A stretch of 64,000 nucleotides of DNA from Magallana gigas (GCF_963853765.1 NC_088862.1:9486001-9550000), one strand, 5' to 3'; shown: positions 12,504 to 42,495, counted from the first letter of the stretch. Numbers and translations are program-made. Notes: generated by a model from the sequence alone, not told the origin.

Positions 12504-12509
12504 CTGGAG

Positions 12510-20500: not shown

Positions 20501-20587
20501 TTTCGTTGATGATTCATTCATATTCTTTTATTTGTCAAATTTAATGGTGACAGAAATTATTGTAGTTTGTGTAGCTGTAAACATGTA

Positions 20588-20704
20588 AGTAGTATAAGGC
20601 GCCTAGATAGGGGGGTCAAGTGAGGTCAAATCCAAAATGGCGTCGAATATTATTTAGGTCAAATCCAAAATGGCGTCTGAATAAAGGTAAACAAAGGCAG
20701 TATA
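20588..20704 (+). repeat. Left terminal inverted repeat of the Maverick (117 bp)
   Basis: Exact reverse complement of 41609-41725; contains an internal 22-bp direct repeat aggtcaaatccaaaatggcgtc twice. Confidence 0.97.
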
Positions 20705-20842
20705 GACAGAACAAAGTCAAATTTTATTGAATTCAAAGCAAATAAGTGAACAAATGAACATATATACAGTGTTTAAAGGAGAAAAATGTTAATAAAGAAC
20801 AAATTTTTTCACTCGGAAACGAATTTTTTCACTCGGAAACGT

Positions 20843-22567
20843 TTATTTCCTGATTTCACATGTTGTGTCTCCGCCTTTGAGGGTTTGATCCGTGAAGAAG
20901 ATCGAGAAATAATCATTGTCGTTGAACTTCGCGGCCATGGACCATTTTTCAGTGGCTTGTTCCTTCGGTCCTCCGTTCAGATAGATGTTTGGTCCCAGGA
21001 GTTTGTTGAGTTCTTTGATGTTGAGTGGTTTTTTCAGCTGAATTTCCCCGCTGATATTGTGGGTTCTTCCGTTTCTGACGAAGCAGAATTTTTTGCAATG
21101 TTCGGTGAAGAGTTCCTTGAGACTTTTGAATTTTTCTTCCGTGGCGATTTTGGGTTCGACATAGATGCTCCATGCTTCTCTTGCTTCTCCTGTGGCTGCT
21201 GCTTTCACCCATTCGTCGGCTTCGTTGAAAGTTTCTGTCATATCCTTGATGTGGGGGAGGATTTGGTCCAGTATTTCTGCGAATATTTTGACGTTTTCTT
21301 TGTTGTCCATCTTGAGTGCGTCGACTTCTCTTTCCATGAGGGCTAATTTTTCTTTAGCTTTTTGGATTTGTTCATCAGCTTTCCGTTGAATTTCTCGGAT
21401 GAAAGTTGCGGCTTCTGAGGTATCGTATAAGGGAGTGGCTTGTACTTCATCTTTCATTTTCTGGTTGATATTTTCCATTTCTTTGACATGTTCTTTGTAT
21501 TCTTGGAGCTCTTTTTCTTTTTCTGTCATTTTTTTATCCAGGACTGTTTCTTTATCTTGGAATTTTTTAGCATTGCCGTCCATATAAGTGAACAAATTGG
21601 CTTCCATGCGAGTTATCATGTCATCCTTTTGTTCGAGTTCTTTTTCTTTTTCAGCCAGTTTTTTCTCCAATTCCTTGGATTTTTGTACGTAATCGAAGTC
21701 GATCCAAGTTTCCATTTCGCATTCCATTCGTTTCATTATTTCTCTGTTTTCTTGGAGATTGTCCTTCAATTCCTGCAGTTCGTTTTCTTTTTCGGTCAGT
21801 TTTTCTTCCAGTTCAGCTTTTTTCATTTCTGCTCTCTCTAGTTCGTTTTCTATTATCCAATTGAAGGTTTTTAGTTTTTTGTACTCTTCCTCGGAGAAGA
21901 ATAGGGGAGGAGCTTTTTCTAGTTTGTGGATTTTTTCTTGCAGGTTTTCGACTTCTTCTTCCAGTTTGTCTATTTCTTTATCCTGTTCGTCATTTTCTTT
22001 TTCTTGTTCTTCAATTTCTTTTTCTTGCTCTGCGATTTCTTCTTTCAAATCCTGAATTTTCTTAGTGGCTTTTTGATTTTCTTTGATGACCTTTTGTAGT
22101 TCTTCTTTGGTGATCTGCAGTTCCGTTTCCACGTCTATTTTCTGTTGTAGTTCTGCTTCAGCCTCTTCCTTCATTTTTTCTGCTAGAATGACGTCCAATT
22201 TCAGCCTGTTGAACTCGTTTTCTGGGTAATAGTAATCCTTGAGCAGGTCTTGTATTTTGTCATAGAGGGATTTTGTGCCTGTTCCGGGTCCAAAGGTTCC
22301 TGTCACTAAGTGAGGGTTCTTAGCCAGTCTTCTTTTTTCCTGGATGACAATCATTTTGTAGAATTCCTTGTCTTCCTGCTTTTCTCTTTTCAGTATGTCT
22401 AAGTAAGTTTCTCCGCCATCATTTCTGGGAGGCTTTAGAAGAAAATCTGGTTTTTCTTCTTCTTTTTCTTTTTTCCCGGCGAATGAGAATCCCAAAAACT
22501 GCCTGTCTGGTTCAATCTGAACCACTTCTCTGATTTTTTCTACGATAAGGTTCTGAAGGATGTCCAT
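20843..22567 (-). CDS. Maverick 574-aa long coiled-coil protein, function unknown
   Basis: Open 574-codon frame with ATG; E/K-rich heptad-like helices over ~aa 120-430; TATATAA box 35-41 nt upstream; AATAAA downstream. Confidence 0.88.
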   Translation of the reverse strand: MDILQNLIVEKIREVVQIEPDRQFLGFSFAGKKEKEEEKPDFLLKPPRNDGGETYLDILKREKQEDKEFYKMIVIQEKRRLAKNPHLVTGTFGPGTGTKSLYDKIQDLLKDYYYPENEFNRLKLDVILAEKMKEEAEAELQQKIDVETELQITKEELQKVIKENQKATKKIQDLKEEIAEQEKEIEEQEKENDEQDKEIDKLEEEVENLQEKIHKLEKAPPLFFSEEEYKKLKTFNWIIENELERAEMKKAELEEKLTEKENELQELKDNLQENREIMKRMECEMETWIDFDYVQKSKELEKKLAEKEKELEQKDDMITRMEANLFTYMDGNAKKFQDKETVLDKKMTEKEKELQEYKEHVKEMENINQKMKDEVQATPLYDTSEAATFIREIQRKADEQIQKAKEKLALMEREVDALKMDNKENVKIFAEILDQILPHIKDMTETFNEADEWVKAAATGEAREAWSIYVEPKIATEEKFKSLKELFTEHCKKFCFVRNGRTHNISGEIQLKKPLNIKELNKLLGPNIYLNGGPKEQATEKWSMAAKFNDNDYFSIFFTDQTLKGGDTTCEIRK

Positions 22568-22811
22568 TCAATGGTGTGAGGAACTGAAGAGAAACGCTGT
22601 GTTATATACCCTCCGTGTACGTGACTTGAGTCAATGCAGCTGCGACGTAAACAACACCTGTGTGACCTCGCTAGCTCTGTGTACGTGTTTGGAGTCAATG
22701 TAGCTGCGACGTAAACAACAGCTGTGTGACCTAGACAGCTGTGTGACCTAGATTATAATACTCTGACGTAGCTGTCTAGCGACCTTGATATGAGTTCGTA
22801 AACATGTTTTG
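22568..22811. promoter_or_regulatory. Divergent promoter between the coiled-coil gene and pPolB
   Basis: GAGGGTATATAA on the minus strand (22602-22613); a ~45-bp unit gagtcaatgYagctgcgacgtaaacaacaSctgtgtgacct repeated at a 64-bp period; forkhead-like GTAAACA, E-boxes CAGCTG/CACCTG and TGACCT half-sites. Confidence 0.6.
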
Positions 22812-25800
22812 ATGAATATAACTATAGCATTATTAAATATTTTTTCATTTTGGATCCATCCCTTGAAAGCGAGAGAGATGAATGTAGACGAAAGCATTTT
22901 GTTGAATAAATCTCGTTTGTTGAGATATAAGAGAAAGCGATTGATTGATGAAAATTTAAAACTTTTAAAGAAAAAAAAAGCGGTCAGAAAAGCTGTTAAG
23001 AAAAAAGTGGTTTCTGACTTTTACAACGTTAGATTAGACAGGGGGCGACAATCTCGCAAATTTAAAGTGAAACAAAATGTATATACGGTCAGCTTTCGAC
23101 CTTTCCCTCAGAAATCAGATAGCGGTTTTGTGAAACGTTTATTGAGCGACATGTTGAAAGAAGTGAAAGAGCGCATGCAATGTAATCCTAACGATTATTT
23201 GAGATTGAATTTGCGCCATCCCTCTTTAGATTCTGAGATTTGGTATGAATTTACTCAATCAAAGAATTTGAACGAAGCTACTATTTTGAATAAAGTTCAG
23301 GCAGTGCAGCAATCGAAAAAAGATTTTACTATTACGGACGGATCTGCTGAATTTGAATTGTTTCACGTCAAATATCCTCAGGGAAGCGGAGGTCAAAAAG
23401 TCAGACATCTACATGCTAATAAAGAGAAGTTTAAAAAAGGAAAAAGATCTGTATTGAAAATTAAAAATGTAGGTGATCATCTCTGTCTCCCTCGAGCTAT
23501 TGTTGTAGCTCGGTTACACAGCCAGCGCCCCTCGGATCCCTTGGAATTGCCCCGTTGGAAAAAACAGTGGGATCGTATTAAAAGGAATGATATTCTTTCC
23601 CCCCAGCAGAAAAAAGAAGCTTTAGAGTTGATGAAAAAAGCTCATTGTGATGCTAATTTGCCCTGCGGTCCCTTGGAATGGAACAAGTTACAAGAAGTAT
23701 TGCTTCCTGAATATCGATTGAAAATATTTCAATTTAAAACGGTCTCTTCTCGACTGAAATTAGAGGCTATTTACAAAGGAAAAGGAAATGGAAAATGTTT
23801 GAATGTTTTGTTGAATGATGAACACTATGATACTATTTTGTCTATGCCTGGATTGACCGAAAAGCAATATTACTGCGATTATTGCGATGTAGGATATAGT
23901 CACATTGAAGATCATAGAGTCAAATGTCCTTACCTTTGTTCTTTTTGTTTGGGGGACACCCCATGTATTTCCGATGGGAGTAGCATTGTTTGTTCTGATT
24001 GTAAGGGGTATTTTAAAAGCAAGATTTGTTATCAGAGACATTTAGAGTCTTACAGTAAAAACTCTGAAACTAGTGTATGCAGTTTAATGGATCGATGTTC
24101 TCACTGTCAAAAATGGATGAGTAAAAAGTTACTCCCTTATCACAAATGTGGGGACGGAAAATGGTGTAAGATTTGTAGAGAAACGGTCGAGAAAGATCAC
24201 CAATGTTTTGTTCAAGTCAAACCTACTCTGAAAGAGAGAGGGAAAAAACTTCAAATGTACATTTATTTTGATTTTGAATGTACTCAAGAAAATGGAACTC
24301 ACGTCCCTAATTTATGTGTAGCTCATCGTGTGTGTCAGTATTGTGATCATTTAAAGGTAGATCAGCCCTGTTCTCACTGTGAACATTTAGGCCCTCGACG
24401 CCATTTGTTTCGTGGTTCTGAAACTTTGAAACAATTCATGGAATGGCTTTTTCAGGCCCAGCCTCACGCTACACAAAAAAGTCAATCTCAGCTTTTGCAC
24501 GAAGGGGCCATTGTCATAGCTCACAATTTCAAGGGATACGATGGGCAATTTATTTTGAATTATTTGGTGCATACTGCATGCATAACTCCCTCGGTGATCA
24601 TGAACGGAACTAAGATTTTATCGATGGAAGTTCTTGGTTTGAAATTTATAGATTCTTATAATTATTTGCCTTTTGCTTTATCAAAAATGCCTTCGGCTTT
24701 TGGATTTGAGGAAATGAAGAAAGGATATTTTCCCCATTTTTTTAATACGGAGCAAAATCAGAATTATGTGGGTCCCTATCCCCCCGCTTCTTATTACAAT
24801 CCTGACGACATGACTTGTTCTGGACGAAAAGCGTTTTATGATTGGTATCGGCAACAAGAAGGCAAATTGTTTGATTTTCAAAAAGAATTCGTAGATAACT
24901 GTATCTCTGACGTAGACATTTTACAACGATGTTGCGCTCAATTTAGAAAGACCATACAGAGTTTGGTACAAGTCAATCCTTTTCAAGAAGCCATTACTTT
25001 TGCCAGTACTGCTAATTTAGCCTATCGAAGAGGATTCATGCCGGAAGACAGTATTGCCATCATACCGAATTTGGGATACGACCCAGCCCGACAATTTTCA
25101 ATGAAAGCTTGTCGATGGTTAGCTTGGATGAGTCGAGACGGGCGGAGGATTTATCATGCTAAAAATGGGGGAGAAATAAATTTAGGGCCCTATACCGTAG
25201 ACGGGTACGATCCAGAATCGAATACCGTGTACGAATTTCATGGATGTTACTGGCACGGTTGCCCTCAATGTCATTCTGATTTACAGAATGAAAATCATCC
25301 TCATCGAGTCGATTGTACTTACGGGACGTTGTACGAACAGACTTTAATTAGAGAACATCATTTGAGAGAACAGGGGTATAAAGTAGTTTCTATTTGGGAA
25401 CACGATTTTGATTTGGAAATGAAAAATAATTTTGAATTGCAAGAGTTTGTGGGCAATTTAAATTTTCAAGATCCTTTGAATCCTAGGGAAGCTTTGTATG
25501 GGGGGCGCACCAATGCCACGCGTTTATTTTGTACCGAGGGAGACATGAGATATGTAGACGTTTGTTCTTTATATCCTTTTGTTTTGAAACATAGACCTTT
25601 TCCCATGGGTCATCCAGAAATCATCACGGAGAATTTTGAGGAGATTTCTAATTATTTCGGGTTGATTCAATGTCAGGTTTTACCCCCTCGGGGTCTCTAT
25701 CATCCCGTTTTACCCTATCGTACCGGAGGAAAATTATTGTTTCCCTTATGTCGTACTTGTGCCCAAAAACTTTGTCAAGATCCTCAGTATCGCTGTCAGC

Positions 25801-26813
25801 ATACAGATTCTGAACGCTGTATCACCGGAACTTGGGTGACTAGCGAACTTCAAAAAGCCTTAGAATGCGGATACCAGTTAAAGAAAATTTACGAAGTGTG
25901 GCATTTTCCAGAAAAAAGTCAGGATCTCTTTCGCAGTTACATTGACACGTTTTTGAAAATCAAACAGGAAGCCTCTGGATATCCCCCCGATTGCGAGACC
26001 GAGGAACAACGGGTAGCTTACATCCGCGACATATTTGATCGAGAGAAATTGATGTTGAACCCTATAGAAATCGAGAAAAATCCCGTGAAACGAACTATTG
26101 CCAAGTTATTTTTGAATTGCTTGTGGGGAAAATTTGCTCAGCGCCTTCAATTACCTAAAATTGAATATTTGAAAGAAGAAGAACAATTGACGAGAATGTT
26201 ACAGGACAGCACTCTTGAAATCAAAGGAGTTGAGTTATTAAACAACTTAGAACAACCCGAACGAGATTTGATTTTGATTAATTATCTGGAAAAACAAGAT
26301 TTCATCGAAGACTGCCCCTTTGGAAACGTGGTGTTAGCTGCTTTTACTACTGCTCATGCTCGTTTACATTTATACGACACCTTAGAAAAATTAGGAGATC
26401 GGGTTCTTTATTTCGATACCGACAGTATTATTTATCAACACGTAGAAGGGTTGTATAATCCTACTATAGTCAATAGTTTAGGAGGATGGACCGACGAATT
26501 GGAGGGAGGTCATATTACCAAATTCATGTCTGGTGGCCCTAAGAATTATGCGTTTGAAACAGATACTGGAAAAAGCGTGCAAAAAGTCAAAGGCCTTACT
26601 TTGAATCATCGAGCTTCTCAAATCGTAACCATGAAGGCTTTAGAGAAAATGATTTTTAAAGAATTGGATGAAGTGACGGTCACTTATCCTCATAAAATCC
26701 AGAGAACCAAGAGACATGAATTATTGACCAAACATTTTACTAAGAAATATCAAATTGTATATGATAAACGGCAGATCATTGATGATTTTAAGACTCTTCC
26801 TTTTGGTTATTAA
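22812..26813 (+). CDS. POLB: Protein-primed family B DNA polymerase with N-terminal OTU-like/terminal-protein region and a Vsr-like nuclease insertion
   Basis: ExoI YFDFE, ExoII HNFKGYDG, ExoIII (N)CISD; Pol motifs YVDVCSLYP, KLFLNCLWGKF, YFDTDS and GPKNY. First ATG at 22812; an alternative start is at 22878. Confidence 0.97.
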   Translation: MNITIALLNIFSFWIHPLKAREMNVDESILLNKSRLLRYKRKRLIDENLKLLKKKKAVRKAVKKKVVSDFYNVRLDRGRQSRKFKVKQNVYTVSFRPFPQKSDSGFVKRLLSDMLKEVKERMQCNPNDYLRLNLRHPSLDSEIWYEFTQSKNLNEATILNKVQAVQQSKKDFTITDGSAEFELFHVKYPQGSGGQKVRHLHANKEKFKKGKRSVLKIKNVGDHLCLPRAIVVARLHSQRPSDPLELPRWKKQWDRIKRNDILSPQQKKEALELMKKAHCDANLPCGPLEWNKLQEVLLPEYRLKIFQFKTVSSRLKLEAIYKGKGNGKCLNVLLNDEHYDTILSMPGLTEKQYYCDYCDVGYSHIEDHRVKCPYLCSFCLGDTPCISDGSSIVCSDCKGYFKSKICYQRHLESYSKNSETSVCSLMDRCSHCQKWMSKKLLPYHKCGDGKWCKICRETVEKDHQCFVQVKPTLKERGKKLQMYIYFDFECTQENGTHVPNLCVAHRVCQYCDHLKVDQPCSHCEHLGPRRHLFRGSETLKQFMEWLFQAQPHATQKSQSQLLHEGAIVIAHNFKGYDGQFILNYLVHTACITPSVIMNGTKILSMEVLGLKFIDSYNYLPFALSKMPSAFGFEEMKKGYFPHFFNTEQNQNYVGPYPPASYYNPDDMTCSGRKAFYDWYRQQEGKLFDFQKEFVDNCISDVDILQRCCAQFRKTIQSLVQVNPFQEAITFASTANLAYRRGFMPEDSIAIIPNLGYDPARQFSMKACRWLAWMSRDGRRIYHAKNGGEINLGPYTVDGYDPESNTVYEFHGCYWHGCPQCHSDLQNENHPHRVDCTYGTLYEQTLIREHHLREQGYKVVSIWEHDFDLEMKNNFELQEFVGNLNFQDPLNPREALYGGRTNATRLFCTEGDMRYVDVCSLYPFVLKHRPFPMGHPEIITENFEEISNYFGLIQCQVLPPRGLYHPVLPYRTGGKLLFPLCRTCAQKLCQDPQYRCQHTDSERCITGTWVTSELQKALECGYQLKKIYEVWHFPEKSQDLFRSYIDTFLKIKQEASGYPPDCETEEQRVAYIRDIFDREKLMLNPIEIEKNPVKRTIAKLFLNCLWGKFAQRLQLPKIEYLKEEEQLTRMLQDSTLEIKGVELLNNLEQPERDLILINYLEKQDFIEDCPFGNVVLAAFTTAHARLHLYDTLEKLGDRVLYFDTDSIIYQHVEGLYNPTIVNSLGGWTDELEGGHITKFMSGGPKNYAFETDTGKSVQKVKGLTLNHRASQIVTMKALEKMIFKELDEVTVTYPHKIQRTKRHELLTKHFTKKYQIVYDKRQIIDDFKTLPFGY

Positions 26814-27101: not shown

Positions 27102-27986
27102 TCACATATTTTTAATTCTTTCCATGACTCTGCAGACTTGGAGCAGTTTCAGGAGTTCTTTGTTGTTCCCAAGCATTTTCATTTTCAGGTAAGACTGGTA
27201 GAGTAATTGTTTTTTAGCAATTCGTAGTTTTTTCCTACTTCTTTCTTCTTCTTCAATTTCCTCTTCTCTTTTTCTTTTCTCTCCTGCCAAACGGTTGACC
27301 ATTTTGCTGTATGTTTCGCAATTCAGCCATAATCCCGTCAATTCTTCTTTGGCTTTCCCGTAATCCGTACAAATTTTGTAAACCCCGCTTACTTTGTCTG
27401 CTTTGGCTCCCTCGATTTCCTCCAGCTCCTGTTGACTCATGTTCTCTACCAATTTGTCCGTGTCGATTTCTTCTCCCATCCATTGCATCTCGTTCCAGTC
27501 ACCGTCCTCTTCAGTACCAGTGAGATCATTTAATATTTCTTGGAAATCGGATGCGACCACTTCTAAGGGGGTTTGATCAGTTCCCTCCTCCATTTTACTG
27601 CTCACCAGGAAAATTTCTGTCTCCGCCTCTTTTCCTTCTTCTTCTATTTCCTCCTCATCTGTTTCTTCTTCTTTCTCTGTTTCTTCTTCTTCTTTCTCTC
27701 TTTCTTCTCCTTCTTTCTTTTCTTCTTCTTCTTCTTCTTTCTCTCTTTCTTCCTCCTTCTCTTCTTCCTTCTCTCCTTCTTTCTCTTTTTCTTCCTCCTT
27801 TTTTATCAAATAAAGTTTCTCTGGTTCCATCTTCTCTACTTCCATCGGTTCAAATATTGAGGGAGGACATTCGACTTTTGGCATCATGTATCCAACACCG
27901 CCGTCCGCTAAGGGTACCGCGATTATAGCTCTTATCTCTCCTTCCATTTTATTGTTGCGTTTTACTTTACTGTGGCACTTCCCCAT
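27102..27986 (-). CDS. Maverick 294-aa Glu-rich acidic protein with possible N-myristoylation signal
   Basis: Starts MGKCHS (MGxxxS); poly-E/K low-complexity middle; basic NLS-like C-terminal region; TATAAAAA ~35 nt upstream. Confidence 0.8.
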   Translation of the reverse strand: MGKCHSKVKRNNKMEGEIRAIIAVPLADGGVGYMMPKVECPPSIFEPMEVEKMEPEKLYLIKKEEEKEKEGEKEEEKEEEREKEEEEEEKKEGEEREKEEEETEKEEETDEEEIEEEGKEAETEIFLVSSKMEEGTDQTPLEVVASDFQEILNDLTGTEEDGDWNEMQWMGEEIDTDKLVENMSQQELEEIEGAKADKVSGVYKICTDYGKAKEELTGLWLNCETYSKMVNRLAGEKRKREEEIEEEERSRKKLRIAKKQLLYQSYLKMKMLGNNKELLKLLQVCRVMERIKNM

Positions 27987-28093
27987 GAAAATTGTGACGA
28001 ATAATGATTTGAGCTGTCTTTTTATATCCTCTCAATAACGAAAGTAGTTTGTTTCTCGGTACTGGACTACGTGACGTGTCACAGCCAGGTGTT

Positions 28094-28621
28094 TCATTCA
28101 CGAGCTGAACTAGGTGCCCTCTCTTGCCAAGTCTGATCGTAACTCTTACAGCATTGACCTTTGTGCGTTTTAGGCTTTTTATAGTTTTCATTGAACCATT
28201 GTCTCACGTAGCGATCTGTTTGTTTTGGTGTCCAGTGTTTAGGAAATAATTGTTTTAATACTTTACGGCCTCTTCTATGACGATGATGTAAAAAATAGAC
28301 ACAATATTCCCCGCACACTTTACTTGTAAAATCTTGATAACGCCTTCCATTATATATCATGTGATGACTGTTTCTTTCAATAAATTCTTGAATTTCCTTA
28401 TACAAGGGGGGAAATCCATAAGAATCGAAATATTCGATCGTATCTCCGTCTAAATATAAACACACCCAATGAGCTCCCGGTTGATCTTGAGGATCTGTGT
28501 TTATGACCATGGCTTTTTCTTTAAAATTTAAATGTTTAGGAATGATATCAAGAGCATAGACACCTGCAAAAGAAGATCCTAAATCTGCCTTTAAGACTTT
28601 TTTCAATTGATAGGTATCCAT
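28094..28621 (-). CDS. PRO: Adenain-like cysteine maturation protease
   Basis: INTD....PGAHWV (catalytic H), EYFDSYG (D), YQDFTSKVCGEYC (Q and catalytic C). Confidence 0.95.
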   Translation of the reverse strand: MDTYQLKKVLKADLGSSFAGVYALDIIPKHLNFKEKAMVINTDPQDQPGAHWVCLYLDGDTIEYFDSYGFPPLYKEIQEFIERNSHHMIYNGRRYQDFTSKVCGEYCVYFLHHRHRRGRKVLKQLFPKHWTPKQTDRYVRQWFNENYKKPKTHKGQCCKSYDQTWQERAPSSARE

Positions 28622-30024
28622 TAATAATCAGTGCTGACTTCTCTTTGTTTGTTGATTTCTAGCACGTTATCAAATTCAGCGTAGACTAAACAATTCAGAG
28701 TTTCTGTCGTGTTTTCTGCAAATTGAATTTCGATTCTCAAATTTCCTGTTTCAATCAGATGAAACTTGTCTAGCTGTGCCTCCTGATCTTTGGTGAAATC
28801 TATACACCACAAGGTGTAGCCGTCTTTATACTCGTCGAAACTAATTCCTGGGGCCCAATCGGCACCGAATTTTCCCAGTCCTTGATACAGACTCAAGTAA
28901 GATCTGAGATACAAGTCGTTAGCGAAATCCGGCTCATAGGGTCGGGTACTGATGGTTTCTCCGTTGATGGTGACATCTAATCTTTTGACTTTGGCGTTTT
29001 TGAAATTGAACGGGTTTTTAGTACTAGTGCCATTGAAAGCGTCATTAGCTACCAGACCCAAAACGATTCGTTTTGGCATTTGCCCTTGAAACAGATGATC
29101 GCTGATTTTGGATTGGGTTCCTGTAGGAATGGTGAACGTTTTAACGTCTACCCGTCTTAGGGGATACTTGGCCGTTTCTACGTTCAACCTCTCGTTGATA
29201 GTATTCAACACGGCTGCAGTAGGTCTGACTTTTCTGACCCACAGTAACACGTTCAGAAGTTTTATTTTTCCTGTACTCCCTGCCTTAGTCATCATGTAAA
29301 AATCAGACTTTGTTCGGTTAAATCTCAAACGAATATCTACTCCGTTGGGAATGAATTTGTCCTGTTGAAAGAGATCTAGATACAGACGATCGATTAAAGT
29401 AATCTTTTTGCCGTCGTTGATGACATTGTGGCGCTTTCTCAACCCGTCGTTTTCAGAACCGGCTGGATAGGTCAGTGCCATATTTGCAGCAGTTATGGTG
29501 ATTTTGTCACCAGCCACAGTATATTCATTTTTACCTAGACCTGCATTCGCTATATCTAAATCATCCATTTTTCCTGCCGTGTCTTTTTCCCACAGACTGC
29601 AAGCAGACATTTGAGAGTCTAAGGTTTCGGGTCTGTAAGAAAGTAATTTCTCTAAATAGGCTTTGTAAGGATAGGTATCTGTTCCTGGGGTAACGATTTT
29701 ACCATTCAGAGTGAGATCGATTTCTGAGAACAAAGAATGTATGATGTTATTCACGGGAGTGGATATTCCATTTACTCCCGTTAAATTACCGCCATCGGCT
29801 TTCGTGAATTTACAAACTATTTGTAAATAAGTCTGTGAGAGATCTATGTATTCGTCTCCCTGTCCCTGAATATCGAATTCAATGGGAGCTGTATCGGAAT
29901 CGAGGGTACTGGAAATGGGATAATATTCCATCCATTTCGATTCTTCCAAGGCTATGTTGGTGGGGGGAACCTGGAACAATTCTAAATTGTCCATCCCACA
30001 CATGCATGACTCTCTGTGCATCAT
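28621..30024 (-). CDS. MCP: Major capsid protein (double jelly-roll, Polinton PY-type)
   Basis: N-terminal [31 protein letters not shown] signature; [17 protein letters not shown]; [17 protein letters not shown]...KNPFNF; 467 aa, adjacent to the protease. Confidence 0.92.
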
Positions 30025-33644: not shown

Positions 33645-34720
33645 GAATCAAAACTGGAAGGATATCCCTTCCAACTCACTTTGACAAGAGAAATGGATTT
33701 TTTTCCGACCCGTCCCTTTTTATAGCCTAAAATTTCATCCACTTCATAGACTTCGTCTTTTTTAGTCACTTTCTGTAATTCAGATTCGTAAAAAGTGCCT
33801 TCTAATTCTTCTCCGTTAAAATCTTTTACCTTATATCTATAAGGTACAGATTCCTGGATTAAACGAGATACTTTAAATATCTCTCGAGTCCAATTCGGTA
33901 AATAACCTTTTTCAAAGGTACGTTTAGCTTTACTGATTCTCACTCGATCTCCGTCTTTAAACTTAGGTTTTTTAAGACTTATTTTCTTATCGTACAATGT
34001 TTTCCACACTTCTAACACATTGGAGGAATTGACCTCAGCAGGAGCTCTCTTGATACTTCGATGGTAACTGTGATTATAAGCATATACTAAATCGGGTAAA
34101 ATATCCACATAACGTCGAGTTTTTTGACGAGTGAAATACCGCCACATTCTTCCTTTCAGAGTACGTTGAAATCGTTCTACGATACTGGCTTTAGTTTCTG
34201 CATTTCGGGTAGTAAAAAAATGAATGGATTTAAAAGCACTTATAAATTCCTTGTTGGTAAATTCCCGTCCTTGATCTGATTGAATGCGAAGAGGTTGTCT
34301 GCCGTCTTGTTTAATAATTTCCTTTAATCCCCGAATCATTTCTTTTCCCGATTTCTGTTTTATGGGTACTACCCAGGCATATTTAGATAACACATCAATA
34401 GCACACAATAAAAAAGTATAACCGTCATTGTCTTTTTTTAATTGAGAGACATCTGCTAAATCTAATTGCCATTGTTCGTCGATACCGGTCACTCTCGTTT
34501 GTCCTCTTATGAATTTTCTTTTTATGGGTTTATGCAGAGTATAAGCTTCTTGTTCTTTGAGCCATTTTCTAATTTCAGATAAAGAAATAGAATAGCCTTT
34601 GGCCCGTAATTGGCGATATAATGACTGTACTCCGCCATACCCTGTTTTAGGATCATAATAAATATCTTCTAACACAGAGTCAATATTCTCTCCTTTTTTT
34701 ATTTTCTTAAGACGTCCCAT
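33608..34720 (-). CDS. INT: Retroviral-type DDE integrase with C-terminal chromodomain
   Basis: WQLDLAD (D), IQSDQGREF (D), KASIVERFQRTLK (E); chromodomain YEVDEIL...VKVSWKGYPSSFDSWIP. Confidence 0.96.
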   Translation of the reverse strand: MGRLKKIKKGENIDSVLEDIYYDPKTGYGGVQSLYRQLRAKGYSISLSEIRKWLKEQEAYTLHKPIKRKFIRGQTRVTGIDEQWQLDLADVSQLKKDNDGYTFLLCAIDVLSKYAWVVPIKQKSGKEMIRGLKEIIKQDGRQPLRIQSDQGREFTNKEFISAFKSIHFFTTRNAETKASIVERFQRTLKGRMWRYFTRQKTRRYVDILPDLVYAYNHSYHRSIKRAPAEVNSSNVLEVWKTLYDKKISLKKPKFKDGDRVRISKAKRTFEKGYLPNWTREIFKVSRLIQESVPYRYKVKDFNGEELEGTFYESELQKVTKKDEVYEVDEILGYKKGRVGKKSISLVKVSWKGYPSSFDSWIPQSDLILPK

Positions 34721-34754: not shown

Positions 34755-35582
34755 CTAAGTCGTCACTTTTTTTTTCTTTCTTTTAGGAGTCATAAAAGTA
34801 CTACTAGGGGTAATACTAGAGGCATCGTGAAATCCAGTGTCATCATCCTCATCATCATATTCTTTTAAGGGAGCAAGGGCTCTAGGTGTTCTAGGGGTAC
34901 TGATTTTTCCCGGTCTTTCCATAGCTTTTATAACGTTAGGATTTACCACATATTCTCTAGGGACTTTGGTTTCTTTCAAAGCTTGAGCAAATTCATTAGA
35001 ACCTGCCGGTGGAGGTAACCTACTACTAGATTTAATTTTCATTGTATTGGTAACTAAATCTACGATATTAGAACCAGGGATGGGTTCTCCTCGATAACTA
35101 ATTTCTCCATCGTCGTTCCATTGTATGACATTAGATTTTTTAAGGTGATCTAAAAGAAGCCCTGCTTTTCTTTGCATTTTACTAGAAACACTTCTGATTA
35201 CTTGCGAATCCATTTCCCTGGTTTTAGGAACAGCAACAGCAGGGGTAGCATCATCGGGGGCAGCAGCTCCATCAGCAGCAGCAGCAGCAGCAGGGGCACC
35301 ATCAGCAGGGGCAGCAGTAGGGGTAGGGGTAGCAGCAGCGGCAGCAGCGACAGCAGCAAGAGGATTTTGTTGAATACGAGCTTGAGCTAAATAATTTCGA
35401 TACCGGTATAATTGTTGCCCATACAGAGCTGCTTTTTCTTCAGGGGTCAAATCTGTTCTCGATTCAATCTGATCTAATTGTTGTCCTAACCCAATAGCAG
35501 CAGCAAATTCGGGAGGTTTAGGTAATTTACCTTTTAATTCCAATAACATACTCTCGGGAACCAATACCATTTTACGACTCAT
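34755..35582 (-). CDS. Conserved Maverick hypothetical protein (275 aa) with Ala-rich linker
   Basis: RKMVLVP N-terminus; IQWNDDGEISYRGEPIPGSNIVDL motif recalled from Polinton conserved ORFs; poly-Ala/Pro insert. Confidence 0.8.
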   Translation of the reverse strand: MSRKMVLVPESMLLELKGKLPKPPEFAAAIGLGQQLDQIESRTDLTPEEKAALYGQQLYRYRNYLAQARIQQNPLAAVAAAAAATPTPTAAPADGAPAAAAAADGAAAPDDATPAVAVPKTREMDSQVIRSVSSKMQRKAGLLLDHLKKSNVIQWNDDGEISYRGEPIPGSNIVDLVTNTMKIKSSSRLPPPAGSNEFAQALKETKVPREYVVNPNVIKAMERPGKISTPRTPRALAPLKEYDDEDDDTGFHDASSITPSSTFMTPKRKKKKVTT

Positions 35583-35941
35583 TTTGGTACAATTTGTAAA
35601 AGTTTCCTTAAAACTAAATTAAGAAGAGACCCTCCTTTTTGTTTCAACAACAATTGTCTTCTTTTTTTATTACTCTGAGGTTTGACTAGTTTTCTCAAGA
35701 TGTGCTTCTTAGTAGAGAGTTCTTGCTTCTGAGAAGGGGACAAAGGAATGTTACCTTTTAATAGGTTATAAACAACCTCACAAATTTTATGAATGCAATC
35801 ACCACTGCAATTTTTTAACACTTCATTTCTTAATTTCCCTGAGGTTTCAGGAGACACTAAGACTTGAAACATAGGCATGTGAGGTCTCAACCGGCATTCA
35901 CAAGACGTATTCTTCTTTTTCTTCTTCATATCTGAAGCCAT
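35579..35941 (-). CDS. Conserved small basic Maverick protein (120 aa)
   Basis: ICEVVYNLLKGNIPLS....L...K..LRKL...KKRR.LL.QKGG; TATAAAAG upstream; ATGA overlap with the next ORF. Confidence 0.82.
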   Translation of the reverse strand: MASDMKKKKKNTSCECRLRPHMPMFQVLVSPETSGKLRNEVLKNCSGDCIHKICEVVYNLLKGNIPLSPSQKQELSTKKHILRKLVKPQSNKKRRQLLLKQKGGSLLNLVLRKLLQIVPK

Positions 35942-35996
35942 GATGAAAAACTGATAAAAATCTCTTTTTTAAACGTCTTTTATAGGGAATTTTTTT

Positions 35997-37181
35997 TTAT
36001 CTATTCAAAAAGGTACTGATAGAAGGAAGATGAGCAGTAGCCATATGACGATCGTAATTTTCTTTCAATCGGAATCCAACACCATCGTGAGGGCAAACAT
36101 ATTTTAAACCTTTCAATCCTTTATTCACCGGATCAGGATCATAAACTTTCTCCCATGGTTTTTTTAACCCCGCAAAAGGATCTTTGGCTTTTTTCAATTT
36201 CAGAGAGGGTCTACGCTTAGGGCTAGAGGCAACAGGCACTTCAGGAGATACAGGTCCCGTTAAAGGGGAGAACGGAAGAATCTGATGAAATAATGAGGGT
36301 GACGGAGAAGATCTTGTGGGGGTAGACGTCAATATATTGTCACTGGTTCTAGCAGCTCCTATGGGTCCTGTCATAGCCCTATCCATTATCTGAACGGCTT
36401 TATCGTCCACGTAAGGGAGAGTAGCATCTAAATCTTCATCTTGATAAGATACATTAGGGGTTACAAGACTTGCAGGGCTTCCAGGGGTGGGGTTCTGATA
36501 AGGCAATCTAACCATCAATTGCATCTTACCCCCAGGAGTTCTAGTTATTTTATCCAAAGGAATTTTAGGCATTCTTTTCTTAAAAGGAAATTTAACAATC
36601 AATTTCTCTCTCTTTCCCCTTTTCTTTTTCTTAGGCTCAGGAGGGGCTACCTCTTGATATTCATCTATCTGATCTATCAGATCTTGATTTTGACCTGTTT
36701 GATCTTGTCGATGTAAATCTACTTGCTCCTGAATCCAATCAGGTAAGTCTTTTCTCAGAGGAGGAGTTTTTACAAAATCTTTTATATTTAATTTCTGTGT
36801 TATTTTCTTCTTTGATTTACTCTTTGCTTTACTCTTTCTAGGTTTAGCAATTCTCTCTTTACTCAGATTCCATTTCAACAAGTGACGAATGATCACCCCG
36901 CCTAAAAATCCAGCACCTCCTCGTTTCAAAATCGCTTTTAATCTATTATCATCATTGACATGTTTATTAGCAATGACGCTCAAATCTTCTCGATGTTTAT
37001 CGATAAAACGTTGAGTTTGCTTATCGATAGGAATAGTCCCTTTCAGCAAATTCTTAGCCCCAATCAAAAACCATTTCAATAAAGTCTTACGACTTAACTC
37101 GATGATCTCTTGTCTCTTTTCTGGATCTCTTTCTCCCTGCAAAAGTTTCAGGAGTCTCAAAATTTTCTTTTGTCCTGCCAT
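35997..37181 (-). CDS. 394-aa protein: N-terminal paralogue of the 120-aa ORF, Pro/Ser-rich linker and degenerate C2H2-like finger
   Basis: NLLKGTIPI versus NLLKGNIPL; C-terminal YVCPHDGVGFRLKENYDRHMATAH; ATG at 37181. Confidence 0.78.
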   Translation of the reverse strand: MAGQKKILRLLKLLQGERDPEKRQEIIELSRKTLLKWFLIGAKNLLKGTIPIDKQTQRFIDKHREDLSVIANKHVNDDNRLKAILKRGGAGFLGGVIIRHLLKWNLSKERIAKPRKSKAKSKSKKKITQKLNIKDFVKTPPLRKDLPDWIQEQVDLHRQDQTGQNQDLIDQIDEYQEVAPPEPKKKKRGKREKLIVKFPFKKRMPKIPLDKITRTPGGKMQLMVRLPYQNPTPGSPASLVTPNVSYQDEDLDATLPYVDDKAVQIMDRAMTGPIGAARTSDNILTSTPTRSSPSPSLFHQILPFSPLTGPVSPEVPVASSPKRRPSLKLKKAKDPFAGLKKPWEKVYDPDPVNKGLKGLKYVCPHDGVGFRLKENYDRHMATAHLPSISTFLNR

Positions 37182-37225
37182 GATGTTCCAAGTCAAAATG
37201 ATATAAATCGTACGTGACCTTTTAT

Positions 37226-37866
37226 TTATATTTCTCTTGGCATATACACCACTAAATTCTCAAACATTTGACTTCTCAATCTCAATTCATCGGGAGTCTG
37301 TGGACTCAAATCTACTAACAGATATCCGTGAGGCATGCGAGTAGCATCTAAATAAGCTGACATTAAATTAGGCATATCTATTTGTCGACTCAAAACCGTG
37401 ATTTGAGATTTGTCTCTGGGATTTTTAAACAACACCATGTAATGAGTATTCAAACTAATCGTCCGGTGTTGAACGGCTCGATCAAATACATTTTGAGTAA
37501 TGTAAATCACACTGGTGTTACGGTGATGAGCTTTGCGAGTAAACCAATCGACAATAGATTCGATGGCTTTCCCCCCCCCATCATATCATCAAAAATTAAA
37601 AGGTGGCGTAGGCTAAAATCACTCACTAATTCCTCGTCGTTTTCTGGTATATCGCGAATAAACTTAACTTGATCTTTTAAACTTTCATAGGCAGGTTGCC
37701 ATTCTCGATAACACCAAACTATTCTGTCTGGGGGAGGGGAGATCCAATGTTTATTTAATATTAAGTTTTTTACAAATTCTGTTTTCCCCGATTTTGAAGG
37801 ACCCGCTACCACCATAGTAAATTCGTGTTTCAATTGAAAAGGAGAGAGTGAATCGTAAGAATACAT
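37226..37866 (-). pseudogene. ATP: A32/FtsK-like genome-packaging ATPase, split by a 1-nt frameshift in a G9 run (37571-37579)
   Basis: Walker A GPSKSGKT and Walker B LLIFDD lie in ORF 37507-37866. The -1 frame continues KAIESIVDWFTRKAHHRNTSVIYITQN...RTISLN.HY.VLFKNPRD into ORF 37226-37510. Restoring one G gives 213 aa. Confidence 0.92.
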
Positions 37867-38042
37867 GATTGGGTATGAGGGAAATGTGACTGGTGTTTCA
37901 TGTTTTATTTCATATTTTGTTTCTATTGTACTGTACTAGATAGCATCTTTTCGAAAAATATGGGTGGCCCTGAAAAGGGCCGTTGGGGCTAGATGGAATT
38001 AGCCTGCCTGGAAAACTGATGGATGGTGCTGCTGCTGGGCTC

Positions 38043-39284
38043 TCAAAACTCTCCCCGGTATCTGCACATGGGGCAAGGGTTAATGGATTGGTAGACCCCT
38101 ACCACGCATATGCAACACACCCGCATCGTCCCACAGTTCTGGCAGCGAATCTGGAGATGCTCCCGCTCCCCGTAGCAGATGACACATTCTCCAGTCAGTT
38201 CTTTCTCAGCCTTGACCGCCCAGCTCGGAATGATGGTAAGGTGGCTGCGGTCATCGATGGGGTGGCGCCCGTGCTGATACAACTCCAGAAATATATCTGG
38301 AGACGGGGTCCTGGATACCGGAACGGCAAGAAGAGGCGGAGACGGGGTCCTGGGAGGCTCAGGCGGAGACGGGGTCCTGGGAGGCTCAGGCGGAGACGGG
38401 GTCCTGGGAGGCTGCACCGAAGGTCCCGGGAAGGTTCTCACCATGGGTGGCTCAATGTTCGGGATAAAATCCCGGAACAGATTCCTGGCCCGAACAAAGG
38501 CGGACTGCTGGGAAGGAGTGAGTCCACGGGGCCTCGTATCCGCCAAAGGGTTGCTGGGACGGGGTCTTCCTCGCCCAACAGGATACGGCCCTCCTCTTCC
38601 ACGTCCGATAGCTCGGGGGGGCGATGGGGGCGATGGCGCTCTCCTCCGGAATGGGGTCCTAGGCTGCGGAGCGGGCTGGAGGGGCGGATTCGCCGGGGAA
38701 AAGGGCCCCGCTGGTCTTACTGGCTGATTGTCAGGACAGGACACTGGCAAACCAAACTGGTGATCTTGGCGGGCCACAAAGTAAGACCGGTCGCAGTGGA
38801 GCCGGTTCGGAGAAAATGGCGGCGGGGAGGGAGGTATCCTTTTCGTAGGCGTATCCGTAGGAGAATAGGGCTCCGACGGATCTGGACTGGCTGGCGACTC
38901 AATCACGGCTGCCTGTCTCGCCGCTGGCTGTCTCACCGCTGGCTGGCTCACCGGAACAGGAATAATGGCGGGTCCTGCTTCTCCAAAGTTGGGTGGCGGC
39001 GGTCTGGCTGGGGGCACAATAGCTGCCGGTCTAGTAGCATCCGGCATCCTCCGCTGGACGTTCTCAGGCAGCTCACTCACCATGATGGGGTTAGGTCGAA
39101 AAAACTCTCCATCCGAGGGGTCCTGGGGATTCGCCTCATCCTCGAAAAGGTGTAGCGGCCTAAAACACACCCGTTCGTACTGCTGCCGAACCGGGTTCCA
39201 CTGGTAATCCCAGAGTTCTATCACCTGCCTGGTGAATAACCGCGGGTAGCTATGGCTAACATGTACTGTTGTGGTAGATTCCAT
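38043..39284 (-). CDS. Pro/Arg-rich protein (413 aa) with C-terminal RING-type (C4C4) zinc finger; putative E3 ubiquitin ligase
   Basis: CVIC-x10-CQNC-x5-CCIC-x10-CPMC at the C-terminus; ATG in aaagATGG context at 39284; markedly GC-rich relative to the rest of the element. Confidence 0.82.
38334..38414. repeat. 3 x 27-bp in-frame tandem repeat inside the RING gene
   Basis: aggcggagacggggtcctgggaggctc three times; encodes PRTPSPPEP-type repeats on the minus strand. Confidence 0.95.
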
Positions 39285-39615: not shown

Positions 39616-40326
39616 TTAAATCAACTTATACAATTTTTTAATCAAATGTCCAGGCACACTAAAAAGTTCGTAACCGTTGTAAGGAGTACGCCAAAACCAG
39701 GTATACAATTCATAGCGTTTTCTTAAAAGCGGATCAAGGAGATGGCTCATCTCTTCAATACGCCGTTCAAATCGAATCCGGTCTGCTGCAGCGGTCATCC
39801 ATTCACTCGTCCGATCCTCGTTAGGAACTTCGTAAATTTTCAATTCAGGATCAAATCTTACTTTTTTTATTGGGTTTCTTGGCTTTCTTGTTTTAACACA
39901 TCCACGTCGGGGACAATGGCTTCTTCGTCCATGGGCTGAGCGTCCTCGCTGTCGTCCTCTACAATCAAACATTGAGGCATGTCCAGATTTCTCTTTAGTT
40001 TCATGTAGGCAAACTCTAAAGCCGCAATTTTCATTTGATCGATCTGCCGAATTATGTGAGAACATTCTCGTCCTTTTCGGGTAAACATTCTCTTCATACA
40101 ATTCCATTCCTGATATTCTTTTAGAGTCACCCCGGTTAATTTCAGCAGCAACCCTGGTTTGGCTCCCTCGGCTGTCCAATAAATCGTCGGCAATCTTCCG
40201 GTATTCGCGTTTTCCGCAATCATTATCAGTACTTTCTGAAGCCATCTCAGGTTGTCGATTTGTTTGCTCATCTCCACGATCTGTTTCAATCTCTGTCGTT
40301 TCTCCCCGGTCGCCAACGCGTTCCAT
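39616..40326 (-). CDS. GADD34/PPP1R15 (ICP34.5/DP71L)-like PP1 regulatory protein; the N-terminal ~150 codons overlap another ORF
   Basis: KKVRF (RVxF PP1-docking motif, 39853-39867) followed by [19 protein letters not shown], matching the eIF2alpha-binding consensus RxGxWxxxAxDRxRFxxRI at every position except G to S. The true start codon is uncertain. Confidence 0.85.
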
Positions 40327-40373
40327 TTCGTCACCAACAAATACCCTTCAAAGGAAAAACAAGCAATATCCAT
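39867..40373 (-). CDS. Maverick hypothetical protein (168 aa, helical, acidic tail)
   Basis: Strong ATG context (aaatATGG); GAGGGTATATAA box upstream; stop codon embedded in AATAAA. Confidence 0.72.
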
Positions 40374-40617
40374 ATTTGCTCTAGTATCATACTCTTTTTG
40401 AAATGATAAAAAACCCTCTATTATATACCCTCAGACAAACATGTTTACGAACTTTTTCTCAAGGCCACTACACACCTGCAGGTGTTTACGTCAAACTCAC
40501 TTGTTTTTTTAGGTCAAACAGCTGCAGAAATTTTAACAATAACAACTTCAGTCACGTAAACAACGAGGGTATATAAGACAGGCCTTTTTATTAAATAAAA
40601 TCATTCTATAAAAAATC
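40374..40617. promoter_or_regulatory. Divergent promoter between the 168-aa/GADD34-like locus and the zinc-knuckle gene
   Basis: GAGGGTATATAA on both strands (40421-40432 minus, 40565-40576 plus); ACGTAAACAAC at 40554-40564 plus reverse copies at ~40442 and ~40483; E-boxes CACCTG/CAGGTG/CAGCTG; AGGTCA. Confidence 0.62.
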
Positions 40618-41478
40618 ATGAACTATGATCCATCTCTCTTGACCCAGTCGCAGGATCCCGTAGCCTTAGAAATGGCTGCATATGATCAAGAGGATCCCTC
40701 ATACATGAGCAAGGAAGACTTCGGAATTATAACTACCACTCAAGAAGGAATTCTGAATACCATGCAAGTCATGAGCAATGAAATTGCTAATCATACCGAC
40801 GTCATCTTGAAAAAACTTCAAAAAGGAATTCTGGATATCCTCGAAGTCATGACCAGTGAAATTAGTACTCATACCGATCTCATCTTGAAAAAAATTCAAG
40901 AAATACAGCAAAAAAAAGGAGGAATGACTACCGTTTATAAATGCTATACCTGCGGAGAGGAAGGACACTTTTCACCCGAATGCCCTCACAAAGAAGAATA
41001 CCAAAAGAAAAAGAAAAAAACTAACAGCGCCGAAGAAATCAAACCAAAATTTACCTGCTTCACTTGCGGAGAACAAGGACATTATTCTACCAACTGTCCT
41101 GAAAAAGAAAAAGGAAAACCAGCACCAACTAAATCCAACGAATGCTTCAATTGCGGGGAAGAAGGACACTGGGCTAATAAATGCCCACACGAAAAACAGA
41201 AAAAGAAAACAACAGCACAAAAAAGAAGCGCTTGCTATACTTGCGGAGAAACAGGCCATTGGACCAAGGACTGCCCAAAAATCGAAGAAGTCATTCAAAC
41301 TTCCGATATTGAAGATAATGAACCACCCAAGAAAATCAAAAAAGAGAGAAAAAAACCAACCAAAAAACCTAAAAAAGAAGACTGGGACGAGGAAATGAAA
41401 ATCGAACAAAAAATACCGGGACGAATGAAGAGAATCAACAATCAAAACATGTTCGTGGAGGAACCCGACCTCGATTAA
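40618..41478 (+). CDS. Protein with four CCHC (CX2CX4HX4C) zinc knuckles, nucleocapsid/CNBP-like
   Basis: CYTCGEEGHFSPEC, CFTCGEQGHYSTNC, CFNCGEEGHWANKC, CYTCGETGHWTKDC with Lys-rich linkers; a duplicated ~26-aa N-terminal helix. Confidence 0.9.
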   Translation: MNYDPSLLTQSQDPVALEMAAYDQEDPSYMSKEDFGIITTTQEGILNTMQVMSNEIANHTDVILKKLQKGILDILEVMTSEISTHTDLILKKIQEIQQKKGGMTTVYKCYTCGEEGHFSPECPHKEEYQKKKKKTNSAEEIKPKFTCFTCGEQGHYSTNCPEKEKGKPAPTKSNECFNCGEEGHWANKCPHEKQKKKTTAQKRSACYTCGETGHWTKDCPKIEEVIQTSDIEDNEPPKKIKKERKKPTKKPKKEDWDEEMKIEQKIPGRMKRINNQNMFVEEPDLD

Positions 41479-41608
41479 AAACCGAAATCCGTTAAAGAAA
41501 AGGATTATTTCTTCAATGTAAATACGTTTAATAACTTTAACTTTAACCGTTTATCATTATTTTCTTGTTCTAATTGCATGTTTTCATTCAATAAATTCGT
41601 TTTCACTT

Positions 41609-41725
41609 TATACTGCCTTTGTTTACCTTTATTCAGACGCCATTTTGGATTTGACCTAAATAATATTCGACGCCATTTTGGATTTGACCTCACTTGACCC
41701 CCCTATCTAGGCGCCTTATACTACT
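41609..41725 (-). repeat. Right terminal inverted repeat of the Maverick (117 bp)
   Basis: Exact reverse complement of 20588-20704; followed by CATGTA. Confidence 0.97.
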
Positions 41726-42495
41726 CATGTAACTGTAAATAAAACCAATGAAAGATGTATATTGAGAATCAATTAAAATTCCGATTAATTTCGAATAATT
41801 TGATAACCCTTGATAAAGTTATTTGTGGCTAGCAATTTGTTTGTTAAAAGCATCTACATTGAAGCTCGACTGACCAAAAGCTTAGATGACCAAAATGGCG
41901 GTGTTCTATAATGTAATTGCAGCAATGTTAAGGTAAAAATATTACAAAGAAACGGTTTATCTTTTGAATCAGCTAAACTTCTAGGACATGCAAGTGTTTC
42001 TTTAAACCTTTTAAAATTCGCAGGTTTTCCAAGCAAGATTCAAACGTGATCTTATTTATTCTAACAATTTTACGCAAAATATACTAAAATTGTCTTCTGC
42101 CTGTGCCTACATACATTAAACTCTGTTCATTCTGTTATTCACACTTAGTGGAGAGGGTCTCCAAATCATTACTTTATAAATAGTCATGGTACTTTGGTTG
42201 AAGCTTTATTAAATCAAAGTACTGAAAGTACTGAAAAATGCTAACCTAGCTTGGTTCTAAAGGAAATTTACTTTGTGCAAGCTTAGTTAGAATGAGACTT
42301 ATTGACATAATGTTAATTAATATCAATTGAAGGTATCCAATGCTAGAAGGGTCAAAATGGCGTTGAAGTTGTACTCATCCAAATTTACGTTTCCTTTTAA
42401 TATGCATGTATATTATGATTGATCATATACACTTAAGTTAATTTAAATCACAGCTGAACACGACATGTAAATTGACACTTGCCTGAATCATGATT

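Follow-up and report, generated by a model that had tools for sequence, protein, structure and literature searches.

A young Maverick element in the oyster Magallana gigas with a histone-type RNA stem-loop and a candidate overlapping PP1-adaptor gene

What kind of element occupies 21 kb within a 64,000-nucleotide stretch of the Magallana gigas genome (GCF_963853765.1, NC_088862.1:9486001-9550000), how much of it is intact, and what in it is surprising? A preliminary description of this stretch, which we call the window and whose positions, counted from its first letter, are used throughout, had pointed to a very young, near-complete endogenous Maverick virus at 20582-41731. Judged from its sequence, the element is a Maverick/Polinton (class Polintoviricetes) of oysters and of the ordinary type. 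Its surprising features are a histone-mRNA-type stem-loop behind a RING-like gene and an overlapping frame that would encode a PP1 adaptor, neither of which was listed in that description; the element itself belongs to a known class, and its youth is not what sets it apart.

The two terminal inverted repeats (TIRs) of the element are identical at 117/117 bases, with the mismatch beginning at base 118, and its termini read AGTAGT...ACTACT. The target-site duplication (TSD) CATGTA at the edges fits length 6 alone when lengths 1-11 are tried, and a 6-mer pair would match by chance with a probability of 5.5e-4 at the composition of the flanks. Identical 117-bp TIRs and an intact 6-bp TSD had both been claimed, and both stood up. 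The element is 21,138 bp long and has a GC content of 39.4%, higher than that of the flanks (30.3% and 32.4%; window without N), with a sharp change at either end; no similarity between element and flanks was found at E<1e-4. Mavericks were recognized by TIRs, a TSD of 5-8 bp, a length of 13-25 kb and (AGT)2 or (AG)3 termini, all of which are present here; the available part of PMC8097293 describes (AGT)2 termini for Mavericks.

The gene map comprises 19 genes, which fill 88% of the element. Where about 19 open reading frames (ORFs) had been described as open, we find 18 open and the nineteenth, the ATPase, split in two frames; for the ORFs of 574, 294, 298, 64, 182, 413 and 286 aa, integrity means openness alone. 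As a distant set for comparison we used 19 contigs (L001-L019) from a scan of bacterial genome bins, in which the identity of the major capsid protein (MCP) is 22-41% and many loci are partial. These are evidently animal DNA, likely present through host contamination of the bins; L002 has U1, U2 and 5S genes. The limits, core genes and conserved small ORFs of the element are:

20582-20587, strand not applicable: left TSD, CATGTA
20588-20704, plus strand: left TIR, 117 bp, starting AGTAGT
22812-26813, plus strand: DNA polymerase B, protein-primed (pPolB), 1333 aa, Pfam DNA_pol_B_2 E=2e-55
28094-28621, minus strand: maturation protease of the Ulp1/adenain type, 175 aa, with His/Asp/Gln/Cys motifs, Pfam Peptidase_C5 E=3e-4
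28621-30024, minus strand: double-jelly-roll (DJR) MCP, 467 aa, assigned by fold
30123-31019, minus strand: basic putative core protein, 298 aa (putatively PW, by position), with four Q-x-G-x-G motifs
31069-31263, minus strand: Arg-rich putative core protein, 64 aa
31403-32608, minus strand: putative penton or minor capsid protein, 401 aa (192-292 aa in relatives), assigned by position and conservation
33396-33644, minus strand: conserved hydrophobic 82-aa ORF adjoining the integrase, in 10/19 distant loci
33608-34720, minus strand: integrase (rve) with C-terminal chromodomain, 370 aa, with D-D-E motifs, Pfam rve E=6e-11 and Chromo E=9e-6
34755-35582, minus strand: conserved 275-aa ORF (putatively PZ, by position), in 5/19 distant loci
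35579-35941, minus strand: conserved basic 120-aa ORF (putatively PM-like, by position), in 4/19 distant loci
35997-37181, minus strand: 394-aa ORF with conserved N-terminal 110 aa and C-terminal zinc-finger-like motif, in 8/19 distant loci
37226-37866, minus strand: A32/FtsK packaging ATPase in two frames, Walker A and B motifs in the first part
41609-41725, minus strand: right TIR, same sequence as the left TIR
41726-41731, strand not applicable: right TSD, CATGTA

The order ATPase-394-120-275-integrase-82-penton-MCP-protease recurs in L001 and L004, fully in L004, and partly in other distant loci; because of this recurrence, no conserved gene appears to be missing. Exonuclease and polymerase motifs were located in the 1333-aa pPolB, and the meaning we assign to them is presumed. 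Residues 70-1333 of pPolB align to L001 and L004, a VSR-like nuclease is inserted at about 796-871 (PHROG endonuclease at 804-871, E=1.3e-4), a Cys/His pair near residues 225 and 338 in the N-terminus is, by pattern match alone, a vOTU candidate, and a sequence search of the PDB gave nothing useful. The integrase reaches 43 bits with Pfam rve (cut-off 32.6). With Mavericks and adintoviruses, as described in the accessible parts of PMC8097293, PMC8502044 and 10.64898/2026.06.19.733378, the element shares its size, TIRs, 6-bp TSD and (AGT)2 termini, the genes for pPolB, rve integrase, protease, A32 ATPase, DJR MCP and the conserved small ORFs, and accessory regions at either end. It differs from them in that the ATPase is split as assembled, the core genes all lie on one strand save pPolB, the penton candidate is about 110-150 aa longer than in distant relatives, and the accessory block has a histone-type stem-loop and a PP1 adaptor, which those parts do not describe. 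By description it can further be likened to the mollusc 'pPolB2' Polintons, including those of Crassostrea virginica, with which, going by the available text of 10.1101/2023.08.22.554363, it shares the oyster host group and a nuclease-like insert in pPolB.

The full virion module of the preliminary description was retained in part: it holds for the MCP (by fold), the protease and, in split form, the ATPase, and the penton and core proteins are without a fold or family match. According to its structural model (predicted local distance difference test, pLDDT, 84.3; predicted template-modeling score, pTM, 0.85), the 467-aa protein has the DJR capsid fold. Foldseek matched the model to Sputnik 3j26 (E=1e-17, TM 0.60), followed by Paramecium bursaria chlorella virus 1, iridovirus and mavirus; a profile search of PDB sequences with the MCP gave nothing useful. 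The protease scores 20.8 bits with Peptidase_C5, below the cut-off of 21.3, aligns its catalytic His and Cys with those of S273R from African swine fever virus (ASFV; E=0.023) and is encoded in 13/19 distant loci. The penton candidate stands upstream of the MCP in 15/19 distant loci; its identity is weakened by the absence of structural support and of any PDB or Pfam sequence match. The composition of the 298-aa protein (K+R 22%, D+E 6%) and of the 64-aa protein (K+R 28%, zero acidic residues) is strongly basic, and the PW label of the former comes from comparing its position with the accessible part of PMC8097293. Penton and core-protein labels are putative and are drawn from position, conservation and basic composition.

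A frameshift in the ATPase had been named as the sole obvious lesion, and our analysis agrees. The frame breaks at a run of nine G (37571-37579), longer than any other G/C run in the element (others: 7), and because of this location the break may be an assembly error. The copy as assembled cannot package its own DNA; with its ATPase split it also fails the sense of 'intact', all conserved ORFs unbroken, used in the available part of PMC8097293. A suspected second frameshift at 39860-39870 was rejected, as 6/6 homologues of the 168-aa ORF encoded there stop at the same place.

The sibling ATPase P0127, which stands for 31 member sequences, is unbroken at 212 aa and is 100% and 97% identical to parts one and two, respectively. 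It scores E=4e-7 with Pox_A32, above the cut-off, and the Pfam match of the window ATPase is weak. Both parts are spanned by one protein in 29/66 ATPase matches, and the ATPase is a single ORF in 11/11 distant loci that carry it. The immediate family thus includes ATPases in one piece, and the break is either a recent slip or an error in the reads. That this copy is fully intact and its frameshift a sequencing or assembly error in the homopolymer has, in our judgment, just under an even chance. Homopolymer errors occur in long reads, the lone break sits in the 9-base run, the rest of the element is undamaged, and the first part of unbroken P0127 is identical. On the other hand, slippage at long G runs also happens in vivo, and P0127 is not this copy because the second parts differ at 3/112 residues. 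Two points weigh against the picture of an intact immediate family: P0127, from a contig of 2 kb, may represent this same insertion as an allele and not a further copy, and no whole intact sibling was seen among the siblings, which were compared as proteins.

The first of the two surprising features was found next to the ATPase:

37942-37986, minus strand: histone-mRNA-type 3' stem-loop with ACCCA tail, Rfam RF00032
38043-39284, minus strand: Pro-rich 413-aa protein ending in a RING-like finger, with a Pfam zf-RING_2 match (E=0.003) that stays below the cut-off

The stem-loop matches RF00032 from end to end with 40 bits (cut-off 34, E=2.8e-8). This is the sole Rfam match in the 64 kb, and no further Histone3 site was found in the element at E<=1. 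The stem begins 61 nt past the stop of the RING ORF, a purine-rich stretch downstream of the stem-loop lies at the expected place and is a candidate U7 site, and an AATAAA follows 133 nt past the same stop. The hairpin is present in the minimum-free-energy and centroid structures. The 413-aa protein also matches the Mdm2 RING (E=0.024), which makes it a candidate E3 ligase or early regulator. A replication-dependent histone gene was rejected as an explanation, as the upstream ORF is RING-like and not a histone; a histone domain was found in 0/17 frame segments upstream of the stem-loop in the window.

According to the available text of PMC5100578, histone mRNAs are the only known cellular mRNAs with this stem-loop end; SLBP and U7 process them, their level rises in S phase, and H2A.X uses a poly(A) site further on besides the stem-loop. 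The 3' end in the element shares with that of replication-dependent histone mRNAs (RF00032; PMC5100578) the stem-loop, the ACCCA tail, the downstream purine stretch, the short gap after the stop and, as in H2A.X, a poly(A) signal further on. It differs in standing behind the RING-finger ORF of a mobile virus and not behind a histone gene. A second case was found in L012, a distant, degraded Maverick, where a histone stem-loop at 504-549 (35.8 bits, above cut-off) lies 28 nt past the stop of an 89-aa C2H2 zinc-finger ORF (573-842, minus strand). This ORF adjoins an integrase and a TBP-like gene (1189-1695, plus strand; Pfam E=1e-27), from which position we infer that it lies inside the element.

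We favor function over a passenger because in both cases, which follow unrelated non-histone genes, strand and spacing are correct. SLBP would bind the stem-loop and U7 the purine stretch, and the RING message would be cut and stabilized in histone style. We put an even chance on this fate of the message, which would tie the regulator to S-phase or SLBP-rich cells. Two observations speak against it: the 116-nt region folds no better than shuffles overall (z=-0.35), and the stem-loop occurs in just 1/19 distant loci, many of which are partial. The absence from the other 18/19 also supports a different origin, namely that the stem-loop is a non-functional passenger from a host histone 3' untranslated region, or another hairpin such as a Helitron end. 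The RING ORF is GC-rich (61%) and looks acquired, CTAG follows the hairpin, and a relaxed pattern, which gives 0.17 chance matches per 262 kb, has one weak extra match at 33069. Nevertheless, the full-length Rfam match, right strand, post-stop spacing, ACC tail and purine stretch are seen in two distant elements after unrelated zinc-finger genes, and a histone coding relic was found in 0/27 upstream frame segments; we therefore regard a passenger as possible, with appreciably less than an even chance. The term 'stem-loop' is absent from the available text of the Maverick and endogenous-viral-element papers checked (including 10.1101/2025.04.19.649669 and 10.64898/2026.10.13.758929), which, no library-wide literature search having been made, is weak evidence of novelty.

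Within the RING ORF, three exact 27-bp repeats (38334-38413) give rise to Pro/Ser-rich repeats. An antisense 378-aa ORF at 38019-39155 and other shadow ORFs were set aside as by-products, since 15/500 shuffles reach an ORF of 378 aa and no Pfam match was found.

The second surprising feature is a pair of overlapping genes:

39616-40326, minus strand: 236-aa ORF in a different frame from the 168-aa ORF that it overlaps, with a C-terminal DP71L/GADD34/CReP-like PP1-eIF2alpha adaptor
39867-40373, minus strand: helical 168-aa protein conserved in oyster elements, 6 homologues at 51-96%

In searches of the PDB, the adaptor domain matched DP71L (9nb9, E=2e-8) and CReP (E=0.012), and its KKVRF at residues 154-158 is an RVxF motif aligned to both. 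The core from W to I matches the eIF2alpha-binding motif given in the accessible part of PMC5346070, and 42/53 library matches of the adaptor ORF have this core. ASFV DP71L, herpes simplex virus 1 ICP34.5 and GADD34/CReP (PPP1R15A/B) have in common with the domain an RVxF motif followed by W-x3-A-x-D-R-x-R-F-x2-R-I and a Leu-rich helix; here, by contrast, the adaptor forms the tail of an overlapping frame in a 21-kb integrating element and departs once from the strict eIF2alpha consensus. These motifs make it likely that the overlapping frame encodes a PP1 adaptor that would dephosphorylate eIF2alpha and keep translation on. The missed consensus position counts against this, as do a Pfam PP1c_bdg score of 18 bits, below the cut-off of 26.1, and the finding of a PP1 adaptor in 0/19 distant loci, many of them partial, in a search in which a 39-row profile matched the window alone.

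The first 153 codons of the 236-aa ORF overlap the 168-aa ORF. This overlap was open in 0/20,000 synonymous shuffles with element-wide codon use and in 17/20,000 within-gene permutations, the most extreme result among 75 frame tests; that it is one test of 75, and that another frame gave 2/500, lessens its force. P0193 matches residues 1-225 of the 236-aa ORF at 63%, and in P0194, and weakly in P0199, a related N-terminus likewise runs on into the adaptor. N-terminal identity to the 236-aa frame is 53% in P0193, 36% in P0194 and 26% in P0199. The long N-terminus of P0217 gave no alignment to the 236-aa ORF, and P0228 and P0234 lay outside this comparison.

The adaptor could alternatively be a short separate protein made from an internal start, the long overlapping frame being accidental. 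The 32 matches with both motifs are mostly short, with RVxF in the first 45 residues in 27 of them, and the window ORF has a Met in frame about 37 residues ahead of RVxF. The N-terminal overlap is also less conserved (53% vs 68%) and less hydrophobic (25% vs 45%) than the 168-aa frame, although both differences are as expected of a spacer selected mainly to stay open. We consider this short protein unlikely, given that the openness of the frame is far beyond that of shuffles, that the frame is continuous in P0193, P0194 and weakly P0199, and that the 236-aa ORF starts at an AUG in favorable context, 101 nt below a TATA box.

That TATA box, at 40427, is followed by three AUGs in three frames (40326-40442, minus strand). 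A 19-codon upstream ORF (40390-40331) overlaps the start of the 168-aa ORF and stops 4 nt short of the adaptor AUG. We take this layout to recall the upstream-ORF control of stress genes; leaky scanning or reinitiation at the three AUGs is a guess. The 168-aa ORF has what we presumed to be a BH1-like look, which prompted the idea of a viral Bcl-2. This idea found no support, from a model (pLDDT 46, four sequences) that is too poor to exclude it. Compared with 48,161 chains, the model came closest to a designed helical protein (Z 7.6), with 0 matches at E<=0.001 in BFVD; a PDB profile match of the 168-aa ORF was not found, and Atlas leads for its homologue P0122 were all under 0.9. A link between a PP1 adaptor and Mavericks was not found in the literature searched or in the available part of the PMC8502044 supplement; the protein table of 10.1101/2025.02.28.640897, available in part, may list such proteins.

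Most likely, the element is a recently integrated provirus of an oyster Maverick/Polinton virus family that is still spreading. No virion is reported for animal Mavericks in the accessible text of 10.64898/2026.06.19.733378, and the labels 'virion-forming' and 'active' are inferred from gene content here, as for every animal Maverick. Starting from the boundaries, gene set, DJR capsid fold, catalytic motifs and close siblings with an unbroken ATPase observed here, we drew the steps of a cycle from family knowledge (10.1101/2024.03.18.585575 and PMC8502044, in their available parts). A linear, TIR-ended genome would be joined into host DNA by the integrase, giving the 6-bp duplication. An excised copy would be replicated by the protein-primed pPolB, the A32 ATPase would package the DNA into capsids that are built of MCP and penton and contain basic core proteins, and the protease would mature the particles. 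If the break is not a read error in the homopolymer, the copy as assembled would need siblings in order to be packaged. The accessory block at the right end, which reads like that of a virus managing its host cell, may tune that cell.

A competing account holds that the family spreads only intragenomically or only with a helper virus, in virophage-like fashion, that autonomous infectious particles are not made and that use of the capsid module is rare or confined to co-infection. The missing virion reports favor it, and helper dependence has been proposed for vertebrate Mavericks on large DNA viruses (PMC8097293) and is a suggestion for the polinton-like elements of occlusion bodies of entomopoxviruses (PMC11296320), as far as the accessible text of these papers goes. 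Conversely, TATA boxes 39-54 nt upstream of 9/19 genes fit transcription by host RNA polymerase II, and the PP1 adaptor and S-phase-type RNA signal would be in keeping with an agent that itself controls its host cell. On balance we regard spread with a helper or only within genomes as possible but less likely than not.

With 0/117 TIR mismatches, the divergence per arm is at most 1.3%; the lack of a premature stop, with neutral drift assumed, bounds divergence at 0.7% for five core genes or at 0.3% for the 18 ORFs taken as full length. MCP matches that name an organism come from oysters in 35/36 cases and from a clam in one, with identities of at most 94%, and 84/120 matches have at least 430 aa (among the matches listed), in line with a family that still codes for protein; 3/6 relatives of the 168-aa ORF are from Magallana gigas. 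A recent integration in a mollusc genome, as first proposed, is thus borne out, with a divergence bound of about 0.3-1.3%. As a point against, the closest MCP matches, P0034 (94%) and P0001 (92%), look truncated or frameshifted, and the family therefore holds damaged copies too. An old, fixed or domesticated element in which gene conversion keeps the TIRs identical is very improbable, as the viral core genes are all open with one break, the TSD is unaltered and the GC step is sharp at either end.

The earlier surprise at the near-intactness of the element was overstated: 134 intact Mavericks across 17 vertebrate species are published (PMC8097293), and Mavericks are present in every mollusc genome surveyed in PMC10294476, each paper being available in part. 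Because intact-looking Mavericks are well documented, youth alone is modest news. This is one more young Maverick on a long list, but in a farmed animal, which permits a direct look at presence or absence, transcripts and particles.

As a tentative proposal, which we hold at somewhat less than even confidence, marine-invertebrate Mavericks took over the histone-mRNA pathway. Zinc-finger regulators (RING in the window, C2H2 in L012) would be expressed through non-polyadenylated SLBP/U7 messages, the provirus would be on only in S phase or in SLBP-rich eggs and embryos, and an overprinted GADD34/DP71L mimic would sustain translation. If true, the stem-loop would suggest a means by which a provirus matches its timing to cells that divide or belong to the germline, and insertions made in SLBP-rich eggs or embryos would be inherited. 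There would be a viral, non-histone class of mRNAs with histone-type 3' ends, new RNA biology because histone messages are described as the only such cellular mRNAs, and poly(A) RNA-seq could miscall such genes as silent. A DP71L-like adaptor would mean that Mavericks counter the integrated stress response as lytic viruses do, and would argue for a real infectious cycle.

The remaining genes of the element are:

20843-22567, minus strand: accessory coiled-coil ORF, 574 aa, with generic coiled-coil matches below cut-offs
27102-27986, minus strand: Glu-rich accessory ORF, 294 aa
32733-33281, minus strand: ORF of 182 aa
40618-41478, plus strand: CCHC zinc-knuckle protein, 286 aa, Pfam zf-CCHC E=2e-27 in four stretches

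A counterpart of the 574-aa ORF was found in 0/19 distant loci, and searches of NCBIfam and PHROGs with the accessory ORFs gave coiled-coil or weak matches only. The N-terminal part of the zinc-knuckle ORF contains an in-frame 78-bp duplication, 82% alike (40740-40899, plus strand). The 10-mer GACGTAAACA has three copies in the 64 kb, each of them in one of the element's two divergent promoter regions (22611-22738 and 40483-40492), and two of them lie within a 64-bp tandem duplication ahead of pPolB; it is a candidate early promoter motif. Inside the left TIR, a 22-bp repeat occurs twice, at offsets 36 and 69. The 9-mer AAAATGGCG lies within this unit, two units per TIR (20623-20677 and 41636-41690), and has seven further occurrences in the window; we take it to look like a YY1 site.

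The flanks consist of repeat-rich animal DNA with remnants of a long interspersed nuclear element (LINE) reverse transcriptase and of a tyrosine-recombinase element. Broken pieces of a LINE reverse transcriptase lie at 62631-63988 (minus strand; Pfam RVT_1 E=4e-20). At 58321-58628 and 58737-59342 (minus strand), a 124-bp inverted repeat (98%) stands beside an N-terminal fragment of a tyrosine recombinase, and the two are probably a DIRS-type relic. A dispersed duplication at 988-2216, 5163-6397 and 7019-7682 has a spacing of about 4.18 kb and copies 86-100% alike, the third being partial. An open frame of 295 codons with Cys/His motifs at 12433-13320 (plus strand) has no Pfam match and is possibly ORF1 of a non-long-terminal-repeat element. 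Among the distant contigs, six of L001-L019 represent one Maverick family from one bin. In L002, a Maverick at 14212-21287 abuts a tandem U2-5S-U1 array with a period of 1378 bp, a position that points to a possible preference for multicopy RNA gene arrays.

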